From an uncultured Verrucomicrobiota bacterium (GTDB taxonomy: Bacteria; Verrucomicrobiota; Kiritimatiellia; PWTM01): 64,000 nucleotides of DNA. The first letter of the stretch is position 1. Each line of letters opens with the position of its first letter. A program made the translations under genes and the position numbers. Shown here in pieces: positions 721-63,815 of the stretch. The stretch spans positions 2,125 to 66,124 of the forward strand of contig CAYODK010000006.1 in the NCBI GenBank assembly GCA_964402695.1. Reading direction: 5' to 3'. Under the pieces are notes generated by a model. The model was given only the letters and a program-made list of their open reading frames with translations. It had not been told where the DNA came from and did no database searches.

Positions 721-750
721 CGCGTAGAACGTAGAACGTAGACCAGACCC
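721..750. repeat. Direct repeat, right copy (cgcgtagaacgtagaacgtagaccagaccc)
   Basis: Matches 1-20 and contains a tandem gtagaac unit. Confidence 0.6.
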
Positions 751-780
751 CATCTTCGTCCCCCTCGATTCCCCTCCCCC

Positions 781-2688: not shown

Positions 2689-2751
2689 AGCGGGCGCTCC
2701 CCGGCTGGCCCCGCCCTGAACGATAATCAGCTCCCCTAAGGAGGAAGACAG

Positions 2752-22450: not shown

Positions 22451-22500
22451 GGGATGGAAACCGGACCGTTCGTACCGGCACCGGGTCCGGCCCCCCGAAG

Positions 22501-37746: not shown

Positions 37747-37838
37747 GAGTCGACCTCCAGCCCCTATCTTACTCCGGTGGTAAGCATTCCCGGTTTCCGG
37801 CCGGTCGGCGGGGTTCCGGGGAAAGGTAGACTGACTCC

Positions 37839-44326: not shown

Positions 44327-44412
44327 CACGCAGGTCGGCGGCGAGAGGACGGCGCGGGGCGAAGCAACCGGACGGGAGGAGGTCGGAAAGAGGACGACTC
44401 GGGGGCTCCTGG

Positions 44413-44441
44413 TTGACGCAGGGCAGGCGGCTCGCTATCGT
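44413..44441 (+). promoter_or_regulatory. Candidate sigma70-like promoter (TTGACG-17 nt-TATCGT)
   Basis: Hexamers with 17-nt spacing about 30 nt upstream of the 44471 start, at a divergent intergenic region. Confidence 0.3.
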
Positions 44442-44470
44442 CAGCTTGGTATCTTGCGGAGGCTCCAGCC

Positions 44471-45127: not shown

Positions 45128-45164
45128 AGCCGCGGCGCGCCCGGCACGGACCGGGGCGTCGGAC

Positions 45165-45902
45165 GTGATCGACCTCCACTTCCACTGTCTTCCCGGTGTC
45201 GACGACGGGCCCGCCGACTGGGCCGAGGCGCTCGAGCTCTGCCGGCTCGCGGCCGCGGACGGCGTGACGATGATCGTCGCGACGCCGCACGTGCTGCGCG
45301 ACCCGTGGTGGAACGAGGACCGCGCGGCGCGGCAGGCGCTCATCGACGAGCTGAACGGGAAGCTCGGCGGGAAGCCGGAGGTCGTCGCCGGGGCGGAGGT
45401 GTGGTTCACCGACGCGCTCGTGGAGCACGCCGAGGCGGGGGAGCGCGGGCCGTTCTCGACGCTCGCCGGGTCGCGGTACCTCCTCGTGGAGTTCCCGCCC
45501 GGGTACGTCGCGCCGGGGGCCGCGGCGGCGTTCCACGAGCTCTCGGTGATGGGGATCGTGCCCGTGGTCGCGCACCCCGAGCGGAACCTCGTCTTCGCGC
45601 GCGAGCCGGCGCGGCTCGCGGAGCTCGTGGAGGCCGGCGCGATCGGGCAGGTGACGGCCGGGTCGCTCGTGGGAGAGTTCGGCCGCTCGGCGCGGGCCGC
45701 GGCGGAGGGGATGATCGGGGACGGCCTCGCGCACTTCGTCGCGTCGGACGCGCACGACCCGAAGCGAAGGCCGCCGAGGATGGCCGCGGCGCGGGAGCGC
45801 GCGCGGAAGCTCTGGGGGGCCGAGGTCGAGGCGGGGCTCTTCGACGCGAACCCGGCGGCGGTCGTCGCCGACCGCGAGCTGCCCTGGGTCTTCGGCGGCT
45901 GA
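45165..45902 (+). CDS. CpsB/YwqE-type PHP-domain tyrosine-protein phosphatase
   Basis: N-terminal MIDLHFHCLPGVDDGP and the HPERN motif, typical of CpsB. Cognate of the BY-kinase. Confidence 0.85.
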   Translation: MIDLHFHCLPGVDDGPADWAEALELCRLAAADGVTMIVATPHVLRDPWWNEDRAARQALIDELNGKLGGKPEVVAGAEVWFTDALVEHAEAGERGPFSTLAGSRYLLVEFPPGYVAPGAAAAFHELSVMGIVPVVAHPERNLVFAREPARLAELVEAGAIGQVTAGSLVGEFGRSARAAAEGMIGDGLAHFVASDAHDPKRRPPRMAAARERARKLWGAEVEAGLFDANPAAVVADRELPWVFGG

Positions 45903-45914
45903 GGAAGGACTACG

Positions 45915-47384
45915 ATGCCGGACATGAGAAAGAGGATGCTCGCCGCCGCGCTCGCGATCGCCGCGGCGCTGCCCGCCGGGGCGCAGGCCGCGGACGACTT
46001 CTACAAGGCGCGGCTCCAGGAAGGGCGGATCGCCTACGAGACGGGGAACGCGGCGGAGGCCGCGGACCTCCTCCGGATAGGCTGCTTCGGCCTGATGGAC
46101 CACCCCGCGCTTCTCTCGGAGGGGCTCGCGTGGCTCGCGCTCGCGCAGGTGAAGGCGGGGCGCGCGGCCGACGTGGACGGGACGGTGCGGCGCTTCCTCG
46201 AGGTTGAGAAGCGGTTCGGGGTGTGGGCGAAGGCGGCCGTGTCGGACGGCGCGCGGAAGGAGTTCGAGGCGCTCCTCGCGCGGCGGCTGCCGCCCGAGGC
46301 GCTCGCCTCGGTGCCGGCGCTCGCGGGGCTCGTGGAGACCGACGAGCAGAAGATCGCGAAGCTCGCGCCGCGGGAGCGGCGGCGGGCGCTCGAGGCGAAG
46401 GCGGCCGCGGAGCCGGCCGAGAAGAAGTGGGTGCTCGCCCTCGCGCGGCTCGCGGCCGAGGCGGGGGAGCCGAAGGAGACGATCCGCCAGGCCGGGAAGG
46501 CGATCGAGCTCGACCCGCAGGACCTCGAGGCGCGGCGCCTCAGGGCCGCGGCGCTCATGGCGCGGAAGAGCTGGGCCGAGGCGCTCGCCGACCTCGACGC
46601 GCTGCCGCCCGCGCTCCTCGCGTCGCAGCCCGCGCTCAGGGCCGACCGGTTCGTCTGCCTCGCGGCGGGGAAGCAGTGGGACCTCGCGCGCGAAGCGGCG
46701 GCGGGGCTGCCGGAGGACCAGCTCGCGCGGGCGGACGTCGCCGCGGCGATGAGGAAGGTGCCGGCGGCGCCGCAGGCGCCCGCGGCGGAGGAGGCAGCGG
46801 GCGCGACGGGAGCGCAGGGGGCGCCCGCGGCGGCGCCTGCGGTGGCGGAAGGGGCCCGGGCCGCGACGGTCGAGAGCGTTCCGGCCGCGCGGGCCGAGGC
46901 CGCTGCGGCACCGCCCGCGACGCCGCCGGCGGCCCCTCCGGGAAGCCGGACGGCAGCTGTGCCGGGCGCGGCGGCGCCGGCGGCGGGCGCCGGGGGCCCG
47001 GGGGCTCCGCAGGCGGCGGCCTCGATCGACGCGCTCAAGGTCCAGATTCGCGACGCGCTGAAGGCGGGGGCTCCCGACAAGGCGAAGGGGATCGCGATGG
47101 GAGCCGTCGCGGCGCGCCCGGACGACCGGGAGGCCCGCAAGCTCCTCCTCGAGGCGGCCTGCATGTCGCGCGACTGGAAGACGGTGGCCGCGCAGGCGCG
47201 GCTCCTCGCGCCGTTCCGCGACGGCGAGGAGCCGTCGATGTTCTACGGCGCCGTCGGGCTCTACGAGACGGGGGCCGTCGAGGAGGCCCGGCCGCTCATG
47301 CAGCGGGCGCGTCCCCGCGTCGCGCAGACGCCGTTCGTGAACTACTACGCCGATCGTCTGCTCCGCGACGGGACGCCGCAGTGA
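45915..47384 (+). CDS. Secreted TPR-like repeat protein
   Basis: Signal peptide, Ala-rich helical repeats, a low-complexity AP-rich middle. Confidence 0.45.
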   Translation: MPDMRKRMLAAALAIAAALPAGAQAADDFYKARLQEGRIAYETGNAAEAADLLRIGCFGLMDHPALLSEGLAWLALAQVKAGRAADVDGTVRRFLEVEKRFGVWAKAAVSDGARKEFEALLARRLPPEALASVPALAGLVETDEQKIAKLAPRERRRALEAKAAAEPAEKKWVLALARLAAEAGEPKETIRQAGKAIELDPQDLEARRLRAAALMARKSWAEALADLDALPPALLASQPALRADRFVCLAAGKQWDLAREAAAGLPEDQLARADVAAAMRKVPAAPQAPAAEEAAGATGAQGAPAAAPAVAEGARAATVESVPAARAEAAAAPPATPPAAPPGSRTAAVPGAAAPAAGAGGPGAPQAAASIDALKVQIRDALKAGAPDKAKGIAMGAVAARPDDREARKLLLEAACMSRDWKTVAAQARLLAPFRDGEEPSMFYGAVGLYETGAVEEARPLMQRARPRVAQTPFVNYYADRLLRDGTPQ

Positions 47385-47516
47385 CGGTCGCGGGCTCGCC
47401 GGCAGCAGCGTCTGCCGCGGCGGTCGCAGCGGCGGCAACGCGCGGAACTGTCGGTTCGGAAACGTTGACCGGGCGCTGTCGCGCCGACTAAAGTCCGGGA
47501 AAAGGGAGGAATCCGT

Positions 47517-48464
47517 ATGCAGTCCTGGAGGCGGTTCGGATCCCGGTGGCCGGTGCGCCGGGGCGCCGGCGCCCTGGTCGTGGCGGCTCTCCTCGTCGCG
47601 CTCGCCCCGGGGTGCGTGACGACGAACGAGGTCGCGAAGTCGTACCCGAACGACGAGCGGTACACGAAGCTCCTCGACGACGTCGCGAAGATCTACGAGA
47701 CGCGGGACACCTCGAAGATCATGGACCTCTACGTCCAGGACACGTACTCCCTCTCGTTCGACCAGACGACGGCGTTCGACTCCGGCGCGGCCGACCACAA
47801 GGGGACGATTGCGCGGCTCTTCGACGGCGTCGAGGACCTGAAGGTGGAGTGGAGCCCCGACGTGACCGTCGACAAGACTTCGGAGAAGGTCTGGACGACG
47901 CGCCACTTCAAGGCGACCGCGCTGATGGCGAACGGCGAGAAGCGCGAGATCTCGGGCTGGCACAGCGCCATCTGGGTGGAGCGCGACGGCAAGGACCTGA
48001 TCGAGTACGAGCACTTCCGCGCCGACACGCGGATCACCGCGATGCCGCCTCCGCCCCCGCCGCCGGCCGGGCCGCCGCCGCTGACGCCGGAGGCGATCGA
48101 GGCGCAGGCGCGCGACTCGATCCGCGACATCTTCTTCGACTACGACAAGTGGGACATCCGCGACTCCGAGCTCCCGAGCATCAACGTCGTCCTCGACTAC
48201 CTGAAGAAGTACCCGACGACGGAGATCACGATCGAGGGGCACTGCGACGAGCGCGGCTCGACCCGCTACAACATCCGCCTCGGCCAGAAGCGCGCCGACG
48301 AGACGAAGAAGTGGCTCGTCGCGCAGGGCATCGCGCCGGAGCGGCTCCGGACGATCTCCTTCGGCAAGAGCCGGCCGTTCGAGGTCGGGCGCTCGGAAGA
48401 CGCCTGGCAGTCGAACCGCCGCTCCCACTTCGTCGTCACCAAGGGCCCGACCTTCGACAAGTAG
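47517..48464 (+). CDS. OmpA-family lipoprotein with an N-terminal NTF2-like (SnoaL/DUF4440) domain
   Basis: Lipobox LAPGC, poly-Pro linker, C-terminal OmpA_C (GHCDERGSTRYNIRLGQKRA). Track start 47518 is inconsistent with its own length; the ATG is at 47517. Confidence 0.8.
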   Translation: MQSWRRFGSRWPVRRGAGALVVAALLVALAPGCVTTNEVAKSYPNDERYTKLLDDVAKIYETRDTSKIMDLYVQDTYSLSFDQTTAFDSGAADHKGTIARLFDGVEDLKVEWSPDVTVDKTSEKVWTTRHFKATALMANGEKREISGWHSAIWVERDGKDLIEYEHFRADTRITAMPPPPPPPAGPPPLTPEAIEAQARDSIRDIFFDYDKWDIRDSELPSINVVLDYLKKYPTTEITIEGHCDERGSTRYNIRLGQKRADETKKWLVAQGIAPERLRTISFGKSRPFEVGRSEDAWQSNRRSHFVVTKGPTFDK

Positions 48465-51661: not shown

Positions 51662-53220
51662 GCTGCGAGCTGGGACAGGACTCGTCGGAGCTGGTCCGTG
51701 TATCGGGGTATCTCGGCGACGCGGGCGAGTCGTCGGCATCCGTCCTCGGCCCTCCCGTCGGCGAAGTCCATGCCCGCCAGGTCTTCGAGTGAGGGCGTGT
51801 GGTCCGGCAGGACTTCGATCATCTTCTCGAGGAGCGCCCGCTTCCGACCCTGGTCCATCGTCTCGGACGAGAGCGCGTGCCACGGAGCGGCGTACCGCGG
51901 ACGCAGCGCGAGGAGCGAATTCAGAACGCGGGTGGCGTCCTCGTGGCGGTCGCACCTGGCGTACGAATCGGCGAGCAGGAAAGCCGTCCACGCATCGCCT
52001 GGGTGAAGTGCCAGGACGCGCTCGTGGAACGCCGTACGGCCCTTCGGGTCCGCCGCGAGCTCGTTCCGGCGAGAAGCAGCTTCGTGGCGGAGGGCCAGCT
52101 CGTCGGCGTAGCCGGGGTCCGGCGAACGCGATCGTCCGCGCAGGAGCCCTGCCCGACCGAGGAACGCTACCGTGTCGCGGGCCGCGAGTTCGTGTGCAAA
52201 GGCGTTGGGGTGAAGGTCGGCCTCGGAGACGACGAGCACCGTGTTCTGTCCTTCGCGTTGGAGCGTCCCAGAGAGGTCAATCACCGGCAGGCGTAAGGAC
52301 TGAAGCGAGGCGACGAGCTGCCTGTAGGGCTTGTCGGCCTTGATGCCGAGTGCGCGCGTCTCAGCGCTCACGGGACCGTGCATGAGGTTGGGGAAGACGA
52401 CCGCTGCAAGGGGGACCCCTGCAGCCCGGCGAAACGATTCCATCTGCCGGAACGTCTCCTCCGCGACACGCCATTCGGCTGATCCGGGGCGATAGGCATT
52501 CTCGAAAGCCTCGAGAGCCGCGTCGATCCTCGAAGACTCGTCGGCGATTCTGGTGGCTGTCAGAGACCGGCCGAGACGGCCCGCGAGGGTGGGGGCCGCC
52601 TCGGCCCAGGCCTGGCCGACGCTCCACGGGTCCACGAGCGCGATGTCGTTCCAGAAGATCTGCCAGAGGACGAGGTCGGGCTTCAGGTCGGCTCCGTGGA
52701 CGAGAAGCTTGATGAGGTTGTCCGCGTGCCTGTGGCCGCAGACGCCGAGGTTGATGACCTCGGGTGTCAGGCCGTTCGGAAGCCGACCGTCGCCCAGAAG
52801 CGTCTCGAGACGGGAGGCCCACGTCTCCTCCATCGCCACGCCCTGGCCCCAGCTGAACGAATCGCCGACGACGACGATCCGGAAGGTCCCGGGCCTCCGC
52901 GAGATGGTGTACTCGGGGGTCCTGAAGCCGTTCGAGTTGTGAAGCGCACGCGCGTCGGGCTGCGAGCTGAACGGTATCGTCGTGGCCAGGAGGTCCGTCG
53001 GGGATGCCTCGAACGGGAAGTACCACGGCGTGGCCATGTACGCACTCGCGCCCGCGGGGCCGGTATCGGCCGACTCGGCAGGCCTCGGGAGGGAAGACAG
53101 TCGGGGCCTGTGGAAGGCCCGCAGGAACGCCTCGGCCGCGACCAGGGCAGCGACCGTCCCCAGCAGGATCGCCGCGAGCTTGAACACGGTTACCCGGCGT
53201 GGACGGGGGTAGCCGGTCAC
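51544..53220 (-). CDS. Membrane-anchored SGNH/GDSL hydrolase-fold protein with a C-terminal TPR-like domain
   Basis: IVVVGDSFSWGQG block I, N-terminal TM. Overlaps the 3' end of the convergent GT4 by about 118 bp. Confidence 0.55.
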   Translation of the reverse strand: MTGYPRPRRVTVFKLAAILLGTVAALVAAEAFLRAFHRPRLSSLPRPAESADTGPAGASAYMATPWYFPFEASPTDLLATTIPFSSQPDARALHNSNGFRTPEYTISRRPGTFRIVVVGDSFSWGQGVAMEETWASRLETLLGDGRLPNGLTPEVINLGVCGHRHADNLIKLLVHGADLKPDLVLWQIFWNDIALVDPWSVGQAWAEAAPTLAGRLGRSLTATRIADESSRIDAALEAFENAYRPGSAEWRVAEETFRQMESFRRAAGVPLAAVVFPNLMHGPVSAETRALGIKADKPYRQLVASLQSLRLPVIDLSGTLQREGQNTVLVVSEADLHPNAFAHELAARDTVAFLGRAGLLRGRSRSPDPGYADELALRHEAASRRNELAADPKGRTAFHERVLALHPGDAWTAFLLADSYARCDRHEDATRVLNSLLALRPRYAAPWHALSSETMDQGRKRALLEKMIEVLPDHTPSLEDLAGMDFADGRAEDGCRRLARVAEIPRYTDQLRRVLSQLAAHGCRMPAGPNLVPFSRSPSLGAPVARPSTGDRSATSEQ

Positions 53221-56200
53221 CGTCCGCTCCGGAGCCAGGCGGACCTAAGTCCGGCGAGGCGATGGACGCACCGCTTCAGGATGGGCGTTTCGAGAGCGTG
53301 GCGAATGGCGCGCTCGGAGGACGGAGCTGCCCTTCCGACTCGCGCCAGAAGGCGCTCTCCCAGGTAGGTTGCGGCCTCGAAGGACGGATGCCTCGGGAAG
53401 CGCCCGAGACCGCGCACCTCGACACACTCGACCGGGAAGAGGCTGACCCCGGCAACGGTTGCGGGCGGAGGTGCGAGAGGTCCTTGCCTCCGCCGGAAGA
53501 CGCCTCGGCGGGAGTCGTCGAGGACCTGCTGGAACAGCTTCACGTAAGCGTCGACCATGTTCTCGATCCGGAAGCTCCCGCTGAGAAGCCTCTCCTGTGC
53601 GCGCTGGGACATTCTGCTTCTCAGGTCGGCGTCGCCCGCGAGGCGCACGATCCGGTCGGCGAACTGGTCGATGTCCCCGACGGGAACGATGAAACCCTCC
53701 TCTCCGTCGCGGACGAGCTCGGGAATACCGCTCCGGATGGCCGAGACGACGGGTATGCAGCCCCGGCCCATGGCCTCCAGGAGGGCGTTCGGCAAACCCT
53801 CGAACGACGAGGTCATCAGGTACACGTCCTGGCTTTCGAGTACGCGGAGCGCATCTTCGTTCGACAGGACTCCGAGCATCCGAATGGCGCCGCGATCGGC
53901 GAGCTCTCGGGCAGCGCTGCGGAACGCGTCTTCGTCCGGCCCGGCTCCAATCACGGTCAGGACAGCGTCCACTCCCCGGTTCAGAACGGCGCGAACGATC
54001 TCCGGGAGGTCGAGGATGCGCTTCTGCCGGACGTTGAGGACGCCGTGATAGACGAGCCGGAGCTGTCCGCCCGCTTCGCGGGCGGGTTTCGGAGCTTCTC
54101 CGGGAAGGCAGATTCCGTACGGGATCGTGTGAAGACGCGCAGCGCACCCCGGGTCGATCCCCACGGCCTTCTCGGCGATCTCCTGACTCACGGCCACCAC
54201 CGCATCCCAGTACCTCCCTTGTCGGGCGAGGTGGTCGTAATGGAGGGGATCGTCCCCGTGGAGGATCCCCACTACCGAGACCCGTCGCGGCAATCGCGGG
54301 GCGACGCACGACTGCCGCCAGTCGTAGTTCGGAAGGTAGACGCACGGTGCGCTCTCCTCGAGGAGGCGCTGCATCGCGGCCCAGCGCTTCCCCCATCCGT
54401 CGGTCCGACCGACGGGCAGGTACCGGACAGGCAGATCCGGTGGAAGGGGCATGGGAGGGTCGGGAATCGAGATCAGGTCCGTCCGCTCCTCCGTGAGGAG
54501 GATCTCCGCCTCGGTCCCCTGTGCGCGAAGCCCTCGCACGAGATTCGCTGCGAAAACCGTCACCCCCGTGAGGGTCCAGTAGGGCAGCGCCACGACGACC
54601 CGAAAGTCACGGATCTCGGCGCGCCGGGCCGCCGTCACGGCGGCCTGCTGCACCTCCCGCGGCGTTGGGCTGCGCCGCATCTCGTCGAAGTCGATCCTGT
54701 CCCGGCGACTCGGGAAAGCGCCGAGCCCGGGGACGACGTGCGAGCACGGAATGGGGAAGATGCCGAGGCCGTCGATCTCCGGGGGGGGGGGAGAGATAGC
54801 TCCCGCAGCCCTGACGAAACGTCCCTCGCGAGCGTCTTCAGCGACCCGCTCGCACAGCTCGCCCCAGCGGCGGGACATCTCCTGGACGCTGTGCGGACCG
54901 CCGGCGACGATCTCGAAGGAGCGGCGGGCCATCCTCGACCGGAGGGCCGGATCGGAGGCGAGTTCCTGCAGCCGGCGCGCGAAATGGTCGAGGTCGCCGA
55001 TGGGTGCGGTGAAGCCGCTCTCACCGTCGCGAACGAGCTCCTGGAGCGCGCTTCGGGTCCGCGAGACGACGGGGACACAGCCCCGCCCCATCGCTTCGAG
55101 GAGAGCATTCGGCATTCCCTCGAACTCCGAGGTCATCAGGAAGGCGTCGTGCTCCTCGAGCATGCGCAGGACGCCTCGATTGGGGAGGACCCCCGCGAAC
55201 CGGACCCGTCCACGCTCCGCGTGGTGGTCCAGCAGGTCCCGCAGCTCGGGTTCCTGGCTTCCACCTCCCGCGAGGGTCAGCACGAACGGAACGCCAAGCG
55301 ACTCGAGACGGTCGAGAATCCCGACGAGGTCGAGGATCCGTTTCTGTCGCTGGTTCAGAAGGCCGTGGTAGACGATTCGGAGGGCGCCCCCGGGGTCCGT
55401 GGCGTGCTGCGGCAGGCTCTCCGGAACCTCGACGCCGATCGGGATCGTCAGGAGCCGAGGCCGGAAGGACGGGTCGATCGCCGCGGTCTGGTCCTCGACG
55501 GCACGGCTGACGGCGACGATGGCGTTCCAGCTTCGTCCGAGGCGTGCGACATGGTCGTAGTGCAGGGGGTCGTCGCTGTGGACGACGCCGGCGACGGCGA
55601 CACTCCCGCTGAGCAGGGGGGAGATGCAGGAGTGCCTCCAGTCCGCGTTCGGCACGTAAACGCAAGGCGAGCGCTCTTCCAGATAGCGAATCATGGCGCC
55701 CCAGTGCGCGCCCCAGCTCGCCTGGGGACTCACGGGAAGGTAGGAAACCGGGAGGTCGTCCGGGAGCGGGAGGCGTGGGTCCTCGACGCTCACGAGGTGC
55801 GTTCGCTCCTCCGTCAGCAGGAGCTCGGCGTCGAAGCCGATGCTCCGGAGGCCGCGGACGAGGTTCGCCGAGAAGATGTTGACTCCGTTCAGAGTCCAGT
55901 AGCTCGCAGCGACGACGACCCTTGGTCGCACGTTCTTCCTCCATGTCTCCCGAGTCAGATCGCTCGTCCGCGCTGGCCGGGAGTCCTTTCGCAATCCGAA
56001 ACGTCCCGCCCGGGTTCCGAGCGAGAGCGCATCCACGAAGAGCCTTGCGCATTCCGCAGCGCGGACTCGGATTTCGGAGTAGAAGAGAACGAGGTGGCCT
56101 GCCGCTACGAGGAGGTAGCTCGTGTCTCTCCAGGCGAGCGAGCCAAGGAGTACCAGCGACAGCCAGGCCTGGTAGAAGCCGGCCGGGAGCACGTAGGCCC

Positions 56201-57044
56201 CGTGCGAAGCCGGGGCCGGGTCTGGGCGCACGCCCCAGACTCTCCAGCGGACGGCGTCTACGCCCGCACTTACAGCAAGGGCTGCGAAAGGCGCGACACC
56301 TGGCGAACCCTGAGAGGCGAACCACGCGGCGAGGACGAGGGCTTCGGCCGGGAAGACGACGCGGTGGATGACTCGGCGAACTCGATCGGGCCGCTGTCCG
56401 GCAACGAAGGTCCGCACGCCGCCCGCCTTGTCCGCTTCCCGGTCCCAGAGCTGGTGGAGGAGGATGCCCCGGGTTCCAGTGAGGAAGGACCACGCGATTG
56501 CGAGTGCGGCCGGTACGCCGAGGCTGCCCTCGCCGAGAACCCACGACGCAGTCGCCGCCGGGAAGGTGTGGACGGCCAGCGAGTCCGCGAGTACCCCAAG
56601 GAGGGACCGTTCCTTCAGCCGGACGGGAGGGGCCGAATAGGCGCCCGCAAGGGCGAGATTCGCGATCACCAGCGCGACGCCCATGGACCCCGCGCCGGCC
56701 AGGAATACCGGCAGGACGCTCACCACCGCGAGGAACAGGAGGGCGCCGGCGACTGCTTCCCTGCGTACCGTCCGTATTCGGGTGGGCCGTCCGGCTCGCC
56801 GATCCGCATCCGAGTCGAAGAAGTCGTTCGCCAGATATCCGAAAGCGCCCAGCGCCGACGTCGAGATCAGGATCGCCAGAAGGCGGGGGCCCGAGGACGA
56901 AGACGGTGACCGGCAGACGAGCGCCTGCGCGTAGCCGACCGCGAGCGCCATCGGGACCTTCGACGAGAACCACTCGCCGGCCCGCACGCTCGCGACGACG
57001 GTCCGGACATCGAGAACGGCACGGCTGAGAGCACGTCGTTTCAC
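53217..57044 (-). CDS. Tri-domain fusion: UbiA-superfamily prenyltransferase-like membrane domain plus two tandem GT4 glycosyltransferase domains
   Basis: UbiA motifs NDFFDSDADRRAGRP and WDREADKAGGVRT in a roughly 330-aa TM domain. There are two roughly 400-aa GT-B repeats, each ending EGMPNALLEAMGRGC(V/I)PVVS. 1275 aa. Confidence 0.65.
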   Translation of the reverse strand: MKRRALSRAVLDVRTVVASVRAGEWFSSKVPMALAVGYAQALVCRSPSSSSGPRLLAILISTSALGAFGYLANDFFDSDADRRAGRPTRIRTVRREAVAGALLFLAVVSVLPVFLAGAGSMGVALVIANLALAGAYSAPPVRLKERSLLGVLADSLAVHTFPAATASWVLGEGSLGVPAALAIAWSFLTGTRGILLHQLWDREADKAGGVRTFVAGQRPDRVRRVIHRVVFPAEALVLAAWFASQGSPGVAPFAALAVSAGVDAVRWRVWGVRPDPAPASHGAYVLPAGFYQAWLSLVLLGSLAWRDTSYLLVAAGHLVLFYSEIRVRAAECARLFVDALSLGTRAGRFGLRKDSRPARTSDLTRETWRKNVRPRVVVAASYWTLNGVNIFSANLVRGLRSIGFDAELLLTEERTHLVSVEDPRLPLPDDLPVSYLPVSPQASWGAHWGAMIRYLEERSPCVYVPNADWRHSCISPLLSGSVAVAGVVHSDDPLHYDHVARLGRSWNAIVAVSRAVEDQTAAIDPSFRPRLLTIPIGVEVPESLPQHATDPGGALRIVYHGLLNQRQKRILDLVGILDRLESLGVPFVLTLAGGGSQEPELRDLLDHHAERGRVRFAGVLPNRGVLRMLEEHDAFLMTSEFEGMPNALLEAMGRGCVPVVSRTRSALQELVRDGESGFTAPIGDLDHFARRLQELASDPALRSRMARRSFEIVAGGPHSVQEMSRRWGELCERVAEDAREGRFVRAAGAISPPPPEIDGLGIFPIPCSHVVPGLGAFPSRRDRIDFDEMRRSPTPREVQQAAVTAARRAEIRDFRVVVALPYWTLTGVTVFAANLVRGLRAQGTEAEILLTEERTDLISIPDPPMPLPPDLPVRYLPVGRTDGWGKRWAAMQRLLEESAPCVYLPNYDWRQSCVAPRLPRRVSVVGILHGDDPLHYDHLARQGRYWDAVVAVSQEIAEKAVGIDPGCAARLHTIPYGICLPGEAPKPAREAGGQLRLVYHGVLNVRQKRILDLPEIVRAVLNRGVDAVLTVIGAGPDEDAFRSAARELADRGAIRMLGVLSNEDALRVLESQDVYLMTSSFEGLPNALLEAMGRGCIPVVSAIRSGIPELVRDGEEGFIVPVGDIDQFADRIVRLAGDADLRSRMSQRAQERLLSGSFRIENMVDAYVKLFQQVLDDSRRGVFRRRQGPLAPPPATVAGVSLFPVECVEVRGLGRFPRHPSFEAATYLGERLLARVGRAAPSSERAIRHALETPILKRCVHRLAGLRSAWLRSGR
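54781..54791. repeat. G11/C11 homopolymeric tract inside the UbiA-GT4-GT4 coding sequence
   Basis: 11 consecutive G on the + strand, encoding PPPP at the linker between the GT4 repeats. Confidence 0.9.
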
Positions 57045-58378
57045 GAAGGCGGGCCCGAACTGCTCCTTCGCCGAAAGCCGAGCCGCCCGAAGTACCGCCG
57101 CGCGTGTCCCGACAGGAGCGATCGGACCGGCGGGAGGTGGTCGAGCCAGGGAGGAGGAAGCCCGAGCGGGGAGCGGACGGTCCCGGGCGGCCGCCGGAAG
57201 GAACCCGTCGAAAGGTCGTGCCAGACCTGATCGAATAGCGCCGTGTAGGCGTCGACCATTCCATCGAGGTTGAATCTGTCGGCGACGGTGCGGTGAGCCG
57301 CCGCGCCCATCGCGGCTCGTCGAACCGGGTCGGACTGCAGGACTTCGAGCCGGGCAGCGAAGGTTCTCACGTCACCAACACGGACTCGGAAGCCGTTCTC
57401 GCCGTCGGCGACGAGCTCCGGGATGCCGCTTCTGATGTCGGAAACGACCGGCACGCAACCTCGGCTCATCGCCTCCAGGAGCGCGAGGGGCAGCCCTTCG
57501 AACTCGGACGCGAGGACGAAGGCGTCGGCCCGTTCGAGCTCGAGGAGGATGTCGTCGTTGGAGAGCGTGCCCAGGAGACTGGCCTGGCCACGACCGACGA
57601 GGTCTCCGAGGGCCCGTTCGAGATTCGTCCGATCCGCTCCGTTCCCCGCGATTCGCAGCTCGAAGGGGACGCCCTGGAGCGCCAGATGTCGAGCGATGGC
57701 GGCGACGTCGAGGACACGCTTCTGGTGCTGGACGATCCGGCCCGCGTAGACGATTCTGAGGGGGGCACCCGGGCGGGAGACGCGCTCGGGGAAGGCCTCC
57801 GGGCATGGAATCCCGTACGGGATCGTTCGCATCCGAGGGACCAGGCGGGGCGTCTGTTTCGCGATTGCCGCGGACACGGCGTCGCTGACCGCGACGATGC
57901 CGTTCCAGGAGGCGCCGAGTCTCGCAACGTGTTCGTAGTGGTCCGGGTCGTCGCTGTGGGCTATGCCGACGACGGCGACGGAATCCGGGAGGACCGGGCT
58001 GACCCCGGAATACGCGTAATCGTAGTTGGGGATGTAGACGCACGGCGAGAGCTCGGCAAGGTAGCGCCCGAGAGTGCTCCACCGCTCGTTCCATCGATGG
58101 TGAAGACGGACCGGGAGTCGATCGAAGCGGAGATCGGCAGGGAGGGGAATGGGGTTCGTCCGGCGTGTCGACGGCCTCGTGAACAACAGGCGGGCATCGA
58201 AACCGCGCGATCCCAGCGCACGCGCCATGTGGAACGAGAACGTGTCTACACCGCTCAGCTCCCCGGAAGTCAACCCGATCACGACCCGGTATTCCGGGCC
58301 GTCCTTACGGGCAGAGCCATTTCGCGGTTGGGCCGGTTCCGCGAATCGACGGTTCATGACGTCTGTCCCCATTATCAT
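57041..58378 (-). CDS. GT-B glycosyltransferase (GT4), third paralog of the tandem repeats in the upstream fusion
   Basis: Same subfamily signatures (EFEGLPLALLEAMSRGCVPVVSDIRSGIPELV). ATGA-coupled to the fusion gene. Confidence 0.8.
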   Translation of the reverse strand: MIMGTDVMNRRFAEPAQPRNGSARKDGPEYRVVIGLTSGELSGVDTFSFHMARALGSRGFDARLLFTRPSTRRTNPIPLPADLRFDRLPVRLHHRWNERWSTLGRYLAELSPCVYIPNYDYAYSGVSPVLPDSVAVVGIAHSDDPDHYEHVARLGASWNGIVAVSDAVSAAIAKQTPRLVPRMRTIPYGIPCPEAFPERVSRPGAPLRIVYAGRIVQHQKRVLDVAAIARHLALQGVPFELRIAGNGADRTNLERALGDLVGRGQASLLGTLSNDDILLELERADAFVLASEFEGLPLALLEAMSRGCVPVVSDIRSGIPELVADGENGFRVRVGDVRTFAARLEVLQSDPVRRAAMGAAAHRTVADRFNLDGMVDAYTALFDQVWHDLSTGSFRRPPGTVRSPLGLPPPWLDHLPPVRSLLSGHARRYFGRLGFRRRSSSGPPS

Positions 58379-58390
58379 ATCGCCTGCCGA

Positions 58391-61300
58391 ATGAAACGAG
58401 CGCTCTTGTTCGTGTTGACGCTTCTCTGCGGGGCGAACGTCGCAGGAGCACCGGCAGGCACCGTTCCGTCGGCGGAGTTTCTTCGCGAGTTGCAGAAACG
58501 ATCCTTCGCGACGTGGACCTCCAGGTCAGAGCAGGAAATCCTCGAACTGTACGACCCGGGCGCGGATGTCGTCCTCTACGGCCCGCAGCTTGCTCGTTTC
58601 GTCGGTGCGCAGGGGCACGTCTCCTTCCTGCTGAGCCTGGTGCGGGACTGGCAGTTCTGCGAGTTCGTCCCGACCGGAGAGCCTTTCGTCGTCGCGGGGC
58701 GCGATCTGGCCTCGACGGCCACAACCTGGAGGTTGGAAGGGGTCACGAGGGATGGGCGTCCGGTCACATACGAAGGACGATGGACGAATGTCTGGGTTCG
58801 GAAAGGCGGCCGCTGGCTGATCGCGCACGAGCACGTCTCTTTCACCAGCTTTCCTGCGGTAGCCTCCTCTGCCATTCAGGGGACTCCCGTGCCCCGCCTT
58901 CCCGGTCTCCCCGAGCCGTCCCGCCTTCCCCTCCTCGAGCAGGAAGGATCTCCGTCGTCGACGGGCCGGCTCTCGAGCGCGCCTCTGATCGGCCTGGTCC
59001 TTTCGGTAGTGGCGATACTGCTCTGCGGATGGGCCGTCATGGCCGTTCGGAAGCAGGCGCGTGGCTCGCTGCTCGGCATGGCTGCTGCGCGGTCCCGTGG
59101 GAGGCTCGTCGGGCTCCTCTTGCGGATTGGACTACGGGTCGAATCGGTGGACGGCCTCGGGCGGACGCCCCTGATGATGGCCGCGAAAGCCGGGAAGGTC
59201 GACATCTGCCAGAGACTGCTCGCAGCGGGCGCGAGGGTGGATGCGCAGGACGAGTACGGAGCGACAGCCTTGCACCATGCGGCGGTCGGCGGAGACCTCG
59301 CAACGGTCGCGCTACTCCTCGAGAGCGGGGCAGACCCCCTGACCGAGACGCCCATGGGAAGGACCGCTGCCGACATCGCGGCTCTTCTCCATCAGGAGCG
59401 CATCTCAGATCTGCTTGCGTCGGCCACAGCGGCGGCAGGAGGCTCTCAGCCCCGTCCGGCCCTGGATCGCCCGCGCAGTCCCGGGCCTCAGCGAATCCGC
59501 GGCGCCTCTTGTCCGCGCTGCTCGGAGTCGCACAGGCTCGTGCTGTCCAGAAGCTACCGTCGCTGGGAAGTCCTCGTTCGGCGCGTCCTGCCCCTCGAGT
59601 TCGTACGCTGTCCCTCCTGCCTGTGGAGAGGCGCCCTCTCGAAGCGGTCGTTCTCTCTCGAGAGCCCTCCGCCAGGGGGTGTCGAGAGCGTACCTTCGAG
59701 CGACGTCGCCCCCTCCGATCGGCCGGAGCCGATGCCGGCGCCGGCGCCGCGGCCTGCAGAGGGTGGCAAGCTCCATCCACGGATCGACGGGGTCTCTTGC
59801 CCGAAGTGCGGCGCCGCGGGTGGGCTCGTTCTCTCGAGAAGCAGACGTTCGTGGGAAAACGCCGTGCGCAGCCTCCTCCCCTTGCAGTTCGTTCGGTGCC
59901 ACCGCTGCCGCTGGCGTGGCCCTGTTCACATGCATCGTCGCGGCGTGTCAGCCCCCGCGAGCCTCGGCGAGTCCGCCACTCCGGGTGGCTCGCGGCCAGA
60001 ACGAACGTCGTGGCCGGGCAGCCTCATCGTCGTCCTCGTCGCGCTCGCCCTGGTGGACCTCTTTCTCCTGGTGCGCCTGTTCCCGCCCTTGACGACGGAC
60101 GAGGTCTACTTCAAGGGAACGGCGTATCACCTGGCGACCACCGGGCGATGGGCGAACCCGTTTGTGGGACTGGCCGGGAACGGACCGGGTGATGGGCTCG
60201 TCCCGTATCCGCCCCTGTTCATGGTCGCTCTTGCCGGATGGTTCAAATTGTTCGGCCTGGGAGGCTATCAGAACCATGCGTTCGTCCTCCTGCTTCACTG
60301 GATGACCGCTCTTCTCGCTGGCGTCCTGACGCTCCGGCTCGTGGAGACGCGTCGAGGTCTCTGGGCTTCGATGGCCGCGATCGGAGCCTTCTGCTATTAC
60401 CGGCTGGATCGGACCGACGTCCTCGCCGGCGTCCTCGTCCTTGCCAGCGTCCTCCTCCTGCTAGAGTCGCTCGATGGCTCGGCCGGGCACGGCTCGCGGG
60501 CACGGCCCGTGCTCCTGCTCGGGCTCCTCGCGACGTTTCTGGTCGGCCCCGCGGCGACGCTTCTCTATGGCGCGGTCCTGTCCGTCTTCGTGATCCGCAG
60601 CGGGCTAGCTTGGGTGAGCGTTCGATCGCTGCTGCTGCAGCTCGCCTCGTGTGCCCTCCTCGCTGTCGCGAGCTCGTGGGCGCTTTCTGCGGAGACATTC
60701 AGCACGCTCGCCCGGCAGATCCTTGGTGCCGTCGCCACGGGACTTCGTCATCCGTTCCGTCTGACCGGAGCCTTCTCCTGGTCGGACGCCGTGTTCGTGC
60801 CGTGGTTCGTCGCGCTCGGGATCGCGCTCCTCCTTTCCCGCAGAACGCCTGCGGGAGCAGACCGCTCCAGACGAGCCGTCGCTCTCGCCGAAGCGACGAT
60901 CTTCGGTGTGCTCGTCTGGCTCTTGTTGACCCCCAAGGCCGGCACCTATTTGCACCTGCTCTTACCCCTGGCGGTCGTCGCGGTCGTGGCGATCACAGCG
61001 GGGCTGTTCCCCCGGGCCAGGCTGGCGCCGGTGGCGATCGCTCTGGGATGCCTGCTGCCCGGCCTCCTGCTCGCACTGCTCACCCTTGCACGCGCGACGA
61101 CGATCGATGACAGGGAGCGCTACTCGAGTGCGGCGAAGGCGGTGGAGAAGTACGTGCCAGCGGGGGAGCTCGTTGCCGGCGACGGGTGCCTCTGGACGGT
61201 CTTCGCTGGACGAAACCCCTTCGTCGACGCGGGCTGGGCGCCTCACGCGGCAAGGGACGCCCGGTGGATCGTCTCGACGGGAATCGGGACGGGCCGGGCG

Positions 61301-61507
61301 GGCCTGAGCGTCGTCGAGGCGCGCCCGGGAGTTCTTCGTGGCGGGGAGGAGGTCGTTTTCGACGGGATACTCAGGGAGCCGCAGCGCATTTCCGGCATCC
61401 CTCTCGGCCGCAGCCGGCTCGGATACGGAATTCGGATCTACCGTTCGCCGGCGGCACCGGACCTGCAGCGCGGCTCGGCCGCTCGAGCCGAAGGAACCGT
61501 GCGATGA
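58391..61507 (+). CDS. Multi-domain membrane protein: NTF2-like (DUF4440) exported domain, TM, ankyrin repeats, two CxxC...CxxC zinc-ribbon-like repeats, C-terminal GT-C-like (ArnT/PMT-type) polytopic glycosyltransferase domain
   Basis: Signal peptide MKRALLFVLTLLCGANVAGA. ANK motifs GRTPLMMAAKAGKVDICQRLLAAGA and GATALHHAAVGGDLATVALLL. Duplicated CPRCSESHRLVLSRSYRRWE...CPSCLWRG and CPKCGAAGGLVLSRSRRSWE...CHRCRWRG. About 11 C-terminal TM helices with YFKGTAYHLATTGRWANPF. A single uninterrupted 1038-aa frame. Confidence 0.6.
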   Translation: MKRALLFVLTLLCGANVAGAPAGTVPSAEFLRELQKRSFATWTSRSEQEILELYDPGADVVLYGPQLARFVGAQGHVSFLLSLVRDWQFCEFVPTGEPFVVAGRDLASTATTWRLEGVTRDGRPVTYEGRWTNVWVRKGGRWLIAHEHVSFTSFPAVASSAIQGTPVPRLPGLPEPSRLPLLEQEGSPSSTGRLSSAPLIGLVLSVVAILLCGWAVMAVRKQARGSLLGMAAARSRGRLVGLLLRIGLRVESVDGLGRTPLMMAAKAGKVDICQRLLAAGARVDAQDEYGATALHHAAVGGDLATVALLLESGADPLTETPMGRTAADIAALLHQERISDLLASATAAAGGSQPRPALDRPRSPGPQRIRGASCPRCSESHRLVLSRSYRRWEVLVRRVLPLEFVRCPSCLWRGALSKRSFSLESPPPGGVESVPSSDVAPSDRPEPMPAPAPRPAEGGKLHPRIDGVSCPKCGAAGGLVLSRSRRSWENAVRSLLPLQFVRCHRCRWRGPVHMHRRGVSAPASLGESATPGGSRPERTSWPGSLIVVLVALALVDLFLLVRLFPPLTTDEVYFKGTAYHLATTGRWANPFVGLAGNGPGDGLVPYPPLFMVALAGWFKLFGLGGYQNHAFVLLLHWMTALLAGVLTLRLVETRRGLWASMAAIGAFCYYRLDRTDVLAGVLVLASVLLLLESLDGSAGHGSRARPVLLLGLLATFLVGPAATLLYGAVLSVFVIRSGLAWVSVRSLLLQLASCALLAVASSWALSAETFSTLARQILGAVATGLRHPFRLTGAFSWSDAVFVPWFVALGIALLLSRRTPAGADRSRRAVALAEATIFGVLVWLLLTPKAGTYLHLLLPLAVVAVVAITAGLFPRARLAPVAIALGCLLPGLLLALLTLARATTIDDRERYSSAAKAVEKYVPAGELVAGDGCLWTVFAGRNPFVDAGWAPHAARDARWIVSTGIGTGRAGLSVVEARPGVLRGGEEVVFDGILREPQRISGIPLGRSRLGYGIRIYRSPAAPDLQRGSAARAEGTVR

Positions 61508-62613
61508 GCGTCGCGCTCGCCGAGCTCGAGGAGAAGGCGGAGGGCCTCGTCTCTTACCTGGAGTCGAGGCTTCGGAAACAGGGTCGGTTCCGCACGCTTC
61601 GTCGGTTCCTCGGCGACGTGGGGAGCTACGCGAGGCCCACTGAGTACGACGGCTGGTACGAGTTCGGGGACTGCCCGTTTGCGGCGGCGAGCATCGCCAT
61701 CCACTTGCCCTTCCTCGGGGACGAGCGCCTCGCCGAACTCGGTCGACAGGTCTGCGAATACCTCGTCCCGGCGCTCGAAAATGGGATCGCGCGGTACGCG
61801 ATGCGGAGAGACGGGCCGATTCCATTCCCGGCAGACGTTGAGGACACGTGCCTCGTCGGCGCCGCGCTTCGGGCCAATGGCTTTCCGGTCGCCTTGAACG
61901 TGAACATGATCGCGGCCAACGTCGATTCGCGCGGACGCTTCTACACCTGGCTTGTGCCCCGGCTGCGCCATTTGCGCCATCCTCGCAACTTCCTCTGGCT
62001 CTGCCGGGACCAGAGGCGTTGCCGAGCGCTCATGAAGTCATACGGGACTTCGCGCGGCCGTCTCTCACAGATGGCGAACGAGTATCGAATCAGCCGCGAG
62101 CCGGCGGTCGCTGCGAATGTGCTTCTCTGTCCCGAGGTTCGCGGACGGTGTCCGGCGGCCGTCACGGCTCTGGTGGAGCAGGTCCTCGATGGAGACATGC
62201 CGCAGCAGTACTACGGAAGTCGGCTTGCTGCCTGGTTTCACCTGGCGCGGCTGTCTGCGGCTCGCGTCGAGCCGATCGGTGCCATCAAGGCCATCGCTGC
62301 GAAGGAGCTTGCGTTGGCCCAGAGGGAGGATGGCTCCTGGGGTACTCCGTTTCAAACGGCCATGGGTTTGCTGGCCTCGATGTACCTCGGTATCGGGAGC
62401 GCTGAGTCGCGCGAGCGAGGGGTCCGGAATCTCCTGAGACTCGAATGGCACGAGAAGGGCTGGGTCCCCTTTCCGTACTACAACGACCTCTACGACGTCT
62501 TCGAGGACGGAAGTGCCGAGCTCACAGCCGTTCTGGTCCTGGAAGCTCTCCTGCGCTGGCGATCGTCCCGTGGGGAACGAGGAGACCCCGTCGCGACCTT
62601 CACCGCTCTATAG
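61504..62613 (+). CDS. Hypothetical protein, possibly alpha/alpha-toroid (prenyltransferase/terpene-cyclase-like, QxxDGSW motif)
   Basis: ATGA-coupled to the upstream gene. QREDGSWGTPF resembles QW motifs. Weak. Confidence 0.35.
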   Translation: MSVALAELEEKAEGLVSYLESRLRKQGRFRTLRRFLGDVGSYARPTEYDGWYEFGDCPFAAASIAIHLPFLGDERLAELGRQVCEYLVPALENGIARYAMRRDGPIPFPADVEDTCLVGAALRANGFPVALNVNMIAANVDSRGRFYTWLVPRLRHLRHPRNFLWLCRDQRRCRALMKSYGTSRGRLSQMANEYRISREPAVAANVLLCPEVRGRCPAAVTALVEQVLDGDMPQQYYGSRLAAWFHLARLSAARVEPIGAIKAIAAKELALAQREDGSWGTPFQTAMGLLASMYLGIGSAESRERGVRNLLRLEWHEKGWVPFPYYNDLYDVFEDGSAELTAVLVLEALLRWRSSRGERGDPVATFTAL

Positions 62614-62789
62614 CGGTCCCGCTTGCGGCCGCGATCTCGCTCCGAGGGACACGGAGGCGACCGAGGCCACTGGAACGTCGGAGGCGGGAGCCGCCTGGCC
62701 GGCCTCTCCGGTGCTCCCGCCGAGCCAACCGACGGCGGGGGGCGAGGCACCGGCCCTGCTCGAGCGCACGGGATACGCGAAAAGAGGGC

Positions 62790-63815
62790 TCATCGAGGTG
62801 GGCCGAAGGAGGCGAGGTCGATGGTCACGTTCCGTTGCCCTTCGAAGAGGAGGGGACAGGACGAGCAGACCCCGCTGCCAGAGGCGAGCGCCCGCCGCAG
62901 GGCCTCAAATGGTTCCGAGCCCCATATTTCGTCGAGTCGTTGTCGTGAGAGGTCGCCCAGCTTCTCGGACGCTCGCCGCGGGTTGACCAGAGTGAACCAG
63001 CACGGGTAGACGCTTCCATCGATAGCGACATTCACCTGGTCCGTCGGAAAGCGACAGGGCCGGAACTCGTACTCTCTCGGGCCGGTGAACTGGACTTCTA
63101 TTCCCAGTCTTGCGGCCTCTTTCGTCGCAGCCGCGAGCACGGCGCGGAACGCGGGGCTCTCCAGGTCCACGCGCGGCCCATCGTAGTCGCTCAGGTAGTA
63201 GGTGCTCATGAAGTACACCCGGTACATCCCCAGCTTCGCGGCGAAGGCGACCGCTCCCGGCATGTCCGCGACGGTGTCGGACGTCACCACCCAGGCCACG
63301 CTGCAGGCAGGACGGGCCGAGGACCGAAGGCGCTTGACTTCGTTCAACTGTGCGATGCTCCCGAGCACCCTCCCGAAAGCGTCGCTCTGCCTGACTCGCC
63401 GGTAGCTCTCCGCGTCGAGGGTCTCGATCGAGACGATGACCTCGTCGACGCCGATCTCTACGAGCGTCGCGATGTCCGCGGGCGTCGGCAGAGAGAAGTT
63501 CGTGAAGAAGCTCATGTGCAGATCGGGATGCGTCTTCCGGGCATGCGAGAGAATCGCGGTGAACTCCGGGTTCGTGAAGGGCTCGCCCAGCCCGAAGAAG
63601 ACCAGCCCGGGAAGGAAGCCGCCTCCGAAACCCAGGTTCCCGAGGATTCTTTGGAAGACCTCGAGGGACATCGCGGTCCCCACCTGCTGAGGCAACTTCT
63701 GCCGAATGCAGTGAATGCACCGGAAGTTGCAGCGGGTAGTGATCTCCACATAGCAGACGGAAGGAAGCCCGGGCGCCGGGGTTTCGGAAGGAGGCGTTCG
63801 ATGCCCTTCACTCAT
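62790..63815 (-). CDS. Radical SAM enzyme with a C-terminal SPASM/twitch-like Cys cluster
   Basis: CNFRCIHC (CxxxCxxC) near the N-terminus, GLGEP, C-terminal CxxxxxxCxxC. 341 aa. Confidence 0.8.
   Translation of the reverse strand: MSEGHRTPPSETPAPGLPSVCYVEITTRCNFRCIHCIRQKLPQQVGTAMSLEVFQRILGNLGFGGGFLPGLVFFGLGEPFTNPEFTAILSHARKTHPDLHMSFFTNFSLPTPADIATLVEIGVDEVIVSIETLDAESYRRVRQSDAFGRVLGSIAQLNEVKRLRSSARPACSVAWVVTSDTVADMPGAVAFAAKLGMYRVYFMSTYYLSDYDGPRVDLESPAFRAVLAAATKEAARLGIEVQFTGPREYEFRPCRFPTDQVNVAIDGSVYPCWFTLVNPRRASEKLGDLSRQRLDEIWGSEPFEALRRALASGSGVCSSCPLLFEGQRNVTIDLASFGPPR

Follow-up and report, generated by a model that had tools for sequence, protein, structure and literature searches.

Does a single gene of a bacterial polysaccharide locus encode a membrane-embedded glycosyltransferase (GT) with putative interaction modules on both sides of the membrane, and what would such a protein do? 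The question is raised by a gene at positions 58391-61507 (forward strand) of a 64,000-nucleotide stretch of DNA from an uncultured Verrucomicrobiota bacterium (contig CAYODK010000006.1, assembly GCA_964402695.1), referred to here as the window. An earlier reading made from the letters alone, which we call the sequence-only reading, described its product as a giant fusion of an exported NTF2-like domain, a transmembrane (TM) helix, ankyrin repeats, a duplicated four-cysteine (Cys4) unit and a GT-C-like polytopic half, and our analysis recovers each of these elements. The assignment of the C-terminal half to the GT-C glycosyltransferases (GT-C_A type, PMT_2/ArnT-like superfamily) is well supported by homology and by a predicted structure. 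The combined NTF2-like/ankyrin/Cys4/GT-C architecture is new and is found in no other protein of the databases searched, while the enzyme core is of a well-known kind.

Assignment of the C-terminal half

GT-C enzymes are defined here as polytopic proteins with 7-13 TM helices and a cytoplasmic N-terminus (PMC11127046) that have one or more conserved acidic residues in the first extracytoplasmic loop, resemble solved GT-C structures and use a sugar donor linked to a lipid phosphate. The gene and the parts of it that bear on this definition are the following.

58391..61507, forward strand: the whole gene, encoding the 1038-residue fusion protein (continuous frame, in-frame GC content at the third codon position (GC3), identity to the database protein P0001; stop codon at 61505-61507)
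60017..61099, forward strand: predicted GT-C transmembrane domain, residues 543-903, 11 TM helices (HMMER relatives, PMT_2/PMT on remote relatives, hhalign, AlphaFold, Foldseek)
60098..60103, forward strand: D570-E571, acidic pair of putative catalytic role where the first periplasmic loop starts (conservation in relatives, hhalign)
61100..61504, forward strand: family-specific C-terminal alpha/beta domain, residues 904-1038, predicted periplasmic (conservation of G.GSG.PG ... SRS..GYG..Y; predicted local distance difference test score (pLDDT) mostly above 90)

A word-seeded search of 5.8 billion proteins with the C-terminal half returned nothing, and phmmer and profile searches against the PDB sequences gave nothing useful, the lone match (a designed helical protein, E = 0.087) being noise. 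Relatives emerged only when 1.84 billion representative sequences were scanned exhaustively with HMMER, which gave 68 of them. Other than P0001, these are mostly free-standing proteins of about 470-580 residues; the remainder are shorter fragments or proteins of up to 685 residues. The closest relatives, P0002-P0005, are 34-39% identical across the full module with its soluble tail, and these four are also without a Pfam match. Among the remote relatives, P0013, P0026, P0037, P0046 and P0052 carry PMT_2 and/or PMT above the cut-off, and a profile search returned further PMT_2-bearing proteins, one of them named 'glycosyltransferase family 39' (GT39) by its source. The close family was compared by hhalign with an alignment of six remote hits, four of which carry PMT_2 above the Pfam cut-off and one of which is named GT39 by its source. 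The two alignments match with 99.7% probability (E = 3e-26) over 398 columns.

The 11 TM helices, taken from the helices of the model and from hydropathy, span residues 543-903, and hydropathy alone delimits a polytopic block at residues 539-905. The first periplasmic loop is predicted to have 63 residues and to carry D570-E571. The first-loop motif TTDEVYFKGTAYHLATTGRW...YPPLF is present in the fusion protein and conserved among the relatives, and hhalign pairs TTDEVYFKGTAYHLATTGRW...YPPLFMVALAGWFKLFG with TDEAY..AYEL..G.L..P...PPLY..LAGFFK.FG of the PMT_2 proteins. D570 is invariant in 21 family sequences, together with K575, G593, G622, R674, Y853 and W935, while P607-P608 is nearly so. The pair D570-E571 is invariant in the five closest sequences and aligns to the TDE of the PMT_2-bearing proteins. 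The motifs of the family are DE..(F/Y)K, YPPL, RPD and, in the C-terminal domain, GSG.PG...SRS..GYG; the C-terminal domain itself (residues 904-1038) has no match in Pfam.

An AlphaFold model of the C-terminal half, built from the family alignment, reached a pLDDT of 82 and a predicted TM-score (pTM) of 0.85. When this model was compared with the PDB using Foldseek, the top 22 matches were all GT-C structures: STT3, ArnT, AglB, PglB, ALG9, AftD, AftA, EmbA/B/C, ALG3, ALG6 and Pmt1-2. The Foldseek probability is 1.0 for 20 of these 22. The best match is STT3 (E = 1e-6), and ArnT (5ezm/5f15) is matched with a TM-score of about 0.5.

That the polytopic region is instead a transporter, a flippase or a Wzy-type polymerase could be argued from the absence of any curated family model matching it and from the need of polysaccharide loci for flippases and polymerases. 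However, transporter folds, which the sequence-only reading had named as the outcome that would overturn its proposal, appear in Foldseek only at a probability of at most 0.2 and a TM-score of at most 0.17. The 99.7% hhalign match to PMT_2 proteins and the conserved DE motif of the first loop also speak against this alternative, and other genes of the window already encode an ABC transporter and a Wzy_C protein. We consider it extremely improbable. Taken together, the homology, the hhalign comparison, the conserved loop and the Foldseek matches support the GT-C assignment well and exclude a transporter, and the proposed likeness of the first loop to ArnT/PMT holds. The family of about 500 residues, missed by Pfam and NCBIfam, is an uncurated branch of a well-known superfamily.

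Integrity and uniqueness of the fusion

The translation of 58391-61507 gives 1038 residues and a stop codon, with no internal stop. GC3 lies between 0.73 and 0.83 in all 300-nucleotide slices of the gene, and the third position has the highest GC content, or ties for it, in nearly all 150-nucleotide slices; the sole ambiguous stretch is the Ala/Gly/Pro/Arg-rich linker at residues ~310-360. Stop codons are absent from all three forward frames between nucleotides 59341 and 60089 (residues 318-566), so a single indel could not hide the end of one gene and the start of the next anywhere from the ankyrin repeats through the Cys4 repeats to the first TM helix of the GT-C domain. On this ground a fusion generated by a frameshift was rejected. 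The product is identical to P0001, which was called independently in a public protein collection and comes from one NCBI contig of 72.8 kb, and its cluster at 90% identity is a singleton. The single 1038-residue frame of the sequence-only reading is thereby confirmed.

The giant frame could still be an artefact, in which at least two neighbouring genes were joined by an assembly or sequencing error or in a chimeric contig. In favour of this, the sequence apparently stems from just one metagenome-assembled contig, long open frames arise by chance in high-GC DNA, and the genes of the window fall into two GC3 classes. Against it, five domains are all read in one frame with in-frame GC3, and the stretch without stops at residues 318-566 means that an indel cannot have made the boundaries between the ankyrin, Cys4 and GT-C parts. 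In addition, the Pfam ankyrin matches cross the stops of frame +1 at residues 261, 262 and 317 without interruption, and the topology of the fusion is self-consistent (outside, TM helix, inside, then a GT-C domain with its N-terminus inside). An artefact of this kind is therefore very unlikely.

The ATG at 58391 begins a textbook signal sequence. The open frame continues upstream of this ATG, where it overlaps an opposite-strand GT4 gene supported by Pfam (57041-58378). The annotated divergent starts of the two genes are only 12 bp apart (58378-58391). Neither a sigma-70-like promoter nor an obvious Shine-Dalgarno sequence was found in this 12-bp gap, and scanning 57800-63000 for promoters and terminators yielded no signal beyond chance expectation. 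The promoters must then lie within coding sequence, or one of the starts differs from its annotation.

Among the 68 relatives, the 525-residue N-terminal extension is present only on the protein of the window; all other matches begin within about 90 residues of the N-terminus of the relative, and the other relatives have their own starts within about 70 residues of the first TM helix. The sequence-only reading had suggested looking for orthologs in which the domains are apart, and the GT-C relatives are indeed mostly free-standing and without the extension. Scanning genome contigs with the whole protein gave no relative, and scanning metagenome contigs gave only two unrelated ankyrin proteins, one of them a plain ankyrin/Sel1 protein (locus L005). 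Literature searches turned up no paper on bacterial GT-C enzymes with ankyrin repeats.

The N-terminal extension

The extension contains the following features, all on the forward strand.

58391..58450, forward strand: signal peptide or signal anchor, residues 1-20, MKRALLFVLTLLCGANVAGA (hydropathy peak at residues 3-23 after a K-R n-region)
58481..58822, forward strand: NTF2-like domain (DUF4440/SnoaL), residues 31-144, predicted periplasmic (Pfam DUF4440)
58976..59044, forward strand: single TM helix, residues 196-218 (Kyte-Doolittle peak of 2.65; positive-inside count)
59078..59380, forward strand: ankyrin repeats, residues 230-330, predicted cytoplasmic (Pfam Ank_2, Ank, Ank_4)
59492..59632, forward strand: Cys4 repeat 1, residues 368-414, with C374, C377, C407 and C410 (internal repeat, core alignment, motif scan)
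59780..59920, forward strand: Cys4 repeat 2, residues 464-510, with C470, C473, C503 and C506 (internal repeat, core alignment, motif scan)

The DUF4440 model matches residues 31-144 with E = 2e-9 and 38.1 bits within the whole protein, and with E = 5.6e-11 and 43.3 bits when the domain is searched alone, where the Pfam cut-off is 25.2 bits; the Pfam model SnoaL_2 also matches (E = 2e-5). A lipoprotein signal was considered and rejected from the sequence, since the cysteine is preceded by Leu and not by Gly, Ala or Ser, a non-canonical lipobox. The TM helix at residues 196-218 is directly followed by an Arg/Lys-rich segment, RKQARGS...RSRGR. At residues 230-330 the Pfam models Ank_2 (E = 7e-16, 59 bits, cut-off 27.3) and Ank (E = 1e-13, 50.9 bits, cut-off 21.1) match, and Ank_4 (E = 3.5e-12) and Ank_5 both exceed their cut-offs as well. 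By eye there are about four ankyrin repeats, two canonical ones flanked by degenerate capping repeats. Hydropathy and Pfam thus agree with the sequence-only reading on the N-terminal signal-like segment (residues 3-20 by hydropathy) followed by a SnoaL/DUF4440-like fold, on the one membrane crossing before the ankyrin repeats, and on the presence of at least two clear repeats.

An OmpA-domain, lipoprotein-like protein is encoded at 47517-48464 (forward strand); it combines an LAPGC lipobox with an N-terminal domain that is weakly NTF2-like and with a poly-proline linker (PPPPPPPAGPPP). The sequence-only reading held that it carries the same NTF2-like domain as the fusion protein. A shared fold is plausible from the sequence comparison, but 'the same domain' overstates it: the two domains are 21% identical with a pairwise E of 1e-3, and the domain of the lipoprotein matches SnoaL_3 with E = 0.06.

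The two Cys4 repeats are clearly related to each other, with 37 of 82 positions identical (pairwise E = 2e-22). In the 47-residue core, 29 positions are identical and all eight cysteines are kept, as CxxC-x29-CxxC in both copies. Nonsynonymous differences per site (pN, 0.30) are fewer than synonymous ones (pS, 0.51), a sign that the duplication is old and has been under constraint. The repeats are Arg-rich. An alignment-free AlphaFold model of the cytoplasmic region with the ankyrin and Cys4 repeats, of low confidence (pLDDT 55), has a strand-knuckle-strand-helix-hairpin arrangement in both copies. The word-seeded homology search gave no relatives of the repeat region and a tblastn search against plasmids gave no match; a regular-expression scan for the Cys4 pattern over the window and 86 loci found only these two copies. 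Thus, the duplication and the cysteine pattern of the proposed ~60-residue CxxC...CxxC zinc ribbons stand, but the term 'zinc ribbon' itself comes only from the pattern and a low-confidence model. It is a reasonable, unproven label.

In the short loops predicted to be inside, lysine and arginine make up 27% of the residues, compared with 11% in the short loops predicted to be outside. The 324-residue region with the ankyrin and Cys4 repeats contains 48 lysines and arginines versus 27 aspartates and glutamates, and its cytoplasmic placement, expected by the sequence-only reading, fits the positive-inside count. The predicted order would be a signal peptide, a periplasmic NTF2-like domain, the TM helix, 324 cytoplasmic residues and a GT-C domain inserted from the cytoplasmic side. 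This topology is self-consistent, the N-terminus of the GT-C domain being inside as it is for GT-C enzymes.

Genomic context and the sugar donor

The window as a whole is a very large polysaccharide locus, exopolysaccharide or O-antigen-like. It encodes a WecA/WbaP-type initiating transferase, two carbamoyltransferases, MBOAT and Acyl_transf_3 acyltransferases, an asparagine-synthase-like gene, many GT2 and GT4 enzymes, an ABC-transporter ATPase, Wza, Wzy_C (42773-44329), a cellulose-synthase-like GT2, an SGNH/AlgX-like esterase and a UbiA-GT4-GT4 fusion. No Rfam family or tRNA was detected in the window. The best matches of one gene near the fusion gene suggest a source that is probably Acidobacteriota-like.

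The nearest free-standing homologs, P0002 and P0005, adjoin a DegT aminotransferase, a methyltransferase and a GT2 of 316-324 residues with two C-terminal TM helices. The latter is the architecture of ArnC/GtrB and suggests that the family uses polyprenyl-monophosphate sugars. Both homologs head compact operons (L001 704-7296 and L003 10001-14328) of the GT-C gene, the methyltransferase, DegT and the membrane-anchored GT2, to which L001 adds WbqC and an acetyltransferase. These operons look like candidate Arn-like aminosugar modification modules.

A more distant homolog, P0008, lies in a locus (L087) that has in common with the window a GT2 (38%), two GT4 (43-44%), a polytopic orphan and an SGNH gene, which indicates that the two loci encode a related pathway. 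The orphan of the window is a polytopic protein of 468 residues without a Pfam match (27625-29028, forward strand), 33% identical to the 482-residue orphan directly upstream of P0008 (L087 3795-5243). Another member of the GT-C family adjoins a carbamoyltransferase. The P0008 locus and this carbamoyltransferase neighbour suggest that the family is a recurrent component of such pathways.

The predicted GT-C module could alternatively act en bloc, moving a preassembled glycan off a polyprenyl-diphosphate carrier to a protein or to another lipid, in the manner of an oligosaccharyltransferase or ligase. The best Foldseek match is STT3, with AglB and PglB within the top 11; PMT-type relatives glycosylate proteins, and proteins of the locus with Pro/Ser-rich linkers are possible periplasmic acceptors. 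On the other hand, ArnT and the oligosaccharyltransferases are not told apart by their Foldseek E-values or TM-scores (about 0.45-0.52 throughout), the sequence relatives carry PMT_2/PMT, which are users of monophosphate donors, and the nearest homologs adjoin GtrB/ArnC-like polyprenyl-monophosphate sugar synthases. There is also the separate Wzy_C ligase/polymerase gene at 42773-44329. We regard en bloc transfer as unlikely, and a polyprenyl-monophosphate sugar as the better candidate for the donor.

The sequence-only reading proposed that such a donor is made by the adjacent UbiA domain. This domain is the N-terminal, UbiA-family membrane prenyltransferase part of a 1275-residue protein (53217-57044, reverse strand), followed by two complete GT4 units, an architecture that is itself unusual. 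A precedent for the proposal is real: UbiA-type polyprenyl-phosphoribose synthases are proven suppliers of donors to GT-C enzymes, the structure of one of them, DPPRS, has been solved (8j8j, cited in PMC11127046), and the founder of GT136 resembles the predicted module in its 11 TM helices, a small helical domain after the first TM helix and a C-terminal domain, beta-rich and binding in GT136 (PMC11127046). By analogy with DPPRS/PPPRS and their GT-C partners, the module would then use a polyprenyl-phosphate pentofuranose from the UbiA-GT4-GT4 protein, whose UbiA domain is encoded on the other strand at a distance of ~1.3 kb, a single GT4 gene lying between. However, in NCBIfam the UbiA domain matches only the generic prenyltransferase PRK12875 (E = 4e-13, below the cut-off) and chlorophyll-synthase models, and a search of the PDB sequences gave chlorophyll synthase alone, with E = 0.02. 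No decaprenyl- or polyprenyl-phosphate phosphoribosyltransferase was found at E<=0.01 in NCBIfam or at E<=1 among the PDB sequences, where the inclusion of 8j8j is unconfirmed. Pfam scans detected no phosphoribose phosphatase, epimerase or MATE flippase beside the UbiA gene, and the closest GT-C homologs pair with a GtrB/ArnC-type GT2 instead. Given these generic matches, the proposal is not supported here, and a donor from the UbiA protein is distinctly unlikely.

Downstream of the fusion gene lies one further feature.

61504..62613, forward strand: soluble orphan of 369 residues, its ATG overlapping the TGA of the fusion gene (ATGA), probably co-translated

The orphan has no Pfam or NCBIfam match and no TM helix, and the PDB search gave only a non-significant hint of a squalene-hopene cyclase repeat (E = 0.64). 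Convergent with it is a gene for a radical SAM/SPASM protein (62790-63815, reverse strand; W_rSAM_matur, E = 1e-37, below the cut-off), which is nearest to the maturases of metalloenzymes and peptides and is odd in a polysaccharide locus. Further away, three tandem soluble GT2 genes (359, 337 and 315 residues) at 22378-25408 (forward strand) are followed by a GT4 and another GT2, none with the C-terminal TM helices of the GtrB/ArnC type.

The genes of the window form two compositional classes, one with GC3 of at least 0.94 (742-3417, 32839-34599, 37830-38708 and 42773-48464) and one with about 0.80, which includes most genes and the fusion gene; the 40-48 kb block has a GC content of 73-77%. 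The two classes suggest that the locus is a mosaic, that genes were acquired horizontally or that the contig is chimeric.

Proposed function

We consider it fairly probable that the protein is a catalytically competent GT-C enzyme which decorates the glycan of the locus from a polyprenyl-phosphate sugar, and that the added modules serve in docking or regulation. The 11-TM domain would bind the polyprenyl-phosphate-linked sugar at the periplasmic face, and D570-E571 on the first periplasmic loop would activate the acceptor. The C-terminal periplasmic domain may hold this acceptor, most probably the exported glycan of the locus and less likely a protein, which would make the reaction a decoration step after export. 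The N-terminal extension is predicted to thread the membrane once more, placing the NTF2-like domain in the periplasm and the ankyrin and Cys4 repeats in the cytoplasm. Judging from what such domains generally do, these modules most likely dock or regulate; they may link the transferase in the periplasm with partners in the cytoplasm, for instance the soluble GT4 and GT2 enzymes or the ABC transporter, and with periplasmic ones. The continuous frame, the identities of the domains, the GT-C fold and homology, the conserved motif, the restriction of the fusion to one protein among the relatives and the polysaccharide context are observed; the topology, the kind of donor, the acceptor, the binding of metal and the purpose of the additions are what we infer.

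Several observations weigh against this reading. No Pfam, NCBIfam or PDB sequence model matches the C-terminal half directly, and the Pfam models PMT_2 (PF13231) and PMT (PF02366) are absent even at E<=10, so that GT-C membership is argued from transitive homology together with a structure prediction. The partners in the hhalign comparison were taken from the query's own remote hits, although the PMT_2 matches on them are independent. The window has no ArnC/GtrB-type GT2 with C-terminal TM helices and no DegT homolog, and no obvious small flippase is found beside the gene. No Pfam zinc-ribbon model reaches its cut-off on the Cys4 repeats, the best having E = 1e-3 and covering one knuckle only. 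Finally, the fusion protein is a singleton from one assembled contig, and the continuity of its frame is known from that assembly alone.

A bolder possibility is that the transferase is hard-wired into a machine that spans the envelope. By capturing a cytoplasmic partner (a soluble GT, a signalling ligand or the ABC ATPase), the ankyrin/zinc module would exert allosteric control over transfer in the periplasm, and the NTF2-like domain would pair with the weakly similar N-terminal domain of the OmpA lipoprotein (47517-48464), tethering the enzyme to the cell wall and outer membrane. We hold this to be quite improbable; if true, no GT-C enzyme would have been seen before to be controlled from across the membrane.

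GT-C enzymes work across the membrane from the sugar-nucleotide machinery of the cytoplasm, and little is known of how their activity is matched to synthesis there. A cytoplasmic interaction module on a transferase that faces the periplasm is unusual, and a natural fusion with ankyrin and Cys4 repeats on the cytoplasmic face and an NTF2-like domain on the periplasmic face would offer a handle on this coupling. The analysis also defines a GT-C family of about 500 residues found repeatedly in polysaccharide loci. The finding carries limited weight, as the fusion is a singleton in one uncultured genome and its enzymatic core is of a well-known kind.

Relation to characterised glycosyltransferases

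The closest known systems are ArnT (GT83) and the bacterial PMT_2/GT39-like enzymes. The fusion protein shares with them a polytopic domain with the N-terminus inside, the Asp-Glu at the start of the first loop, amphipathic helices, the (K/Y)PPL motif and a C-terminal periplasmic domain, as well as the structural match to 5ezm/5f15, the profile homology and, for its nearest homologs, Arn-like neighbours (an aminotransferase and a membrane-anchored GT2). It differs in being below the Pfam thresholds for PMT_2 and PMT, in its family-specific C-terminal domain and in the 525-residue NTF2-like/ankyrin/Cys4 extension. ArnT has 13 TM helices, compared with 11 here. The ArnT-type pairing of an ArnC-like GT2 with an aminotransferase is present for P0002 and P0005, whereas the window has neither partner.

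Three-component periplasmic glycosylation systems (GtrA/GtrB/Gtr*, and ORF15/ORF14/ORF12 of C. youngae, GT136) likewise have a GT-C enzyme in a polysaccharide locus, with decoration of the polymer expected after export. In these systems the enzyme is accompanied by a lipid-sugar synthase and a flippase, which were not found beside the gene studied here. We know of no three-component system described with cytoplasmic ankyrin or zinc modules. The likeness to GT136 in 11 TM helices, a helical insert after the first of them and a C-terminal beta-rich binding domain is by description only (PMC11127046).

The mycobacterial AftD and EmbA-C are also large multi-domain GT-C enzymes with extra soluble modules, and both are among the Foldseek matches. 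Emb and AftD engage the cytoplasmic acyl carrier protein, as also stated in the titles of PDB entries. Their extra domains are periplasmic carbohydrate-binding modules and their cytoplasmic partner is a separate protein, whereas the ankyrin/Cys4 module is here covalently fused.

GT-C cores of the same superfamily are fused to repeat-type interaction domains in the eukaryotic O-mannosyltransferases, MIR in PMT and TPR in TMTC. The fold match to Pmt1-Pmt2 is weak. The repeats of the eukaryotic enzymes face the lumen, on the side of the active site, whereas the ankyrin repeats of the fusion protein are predicted to be cytoplasmic, on the opposite side of the membrane.

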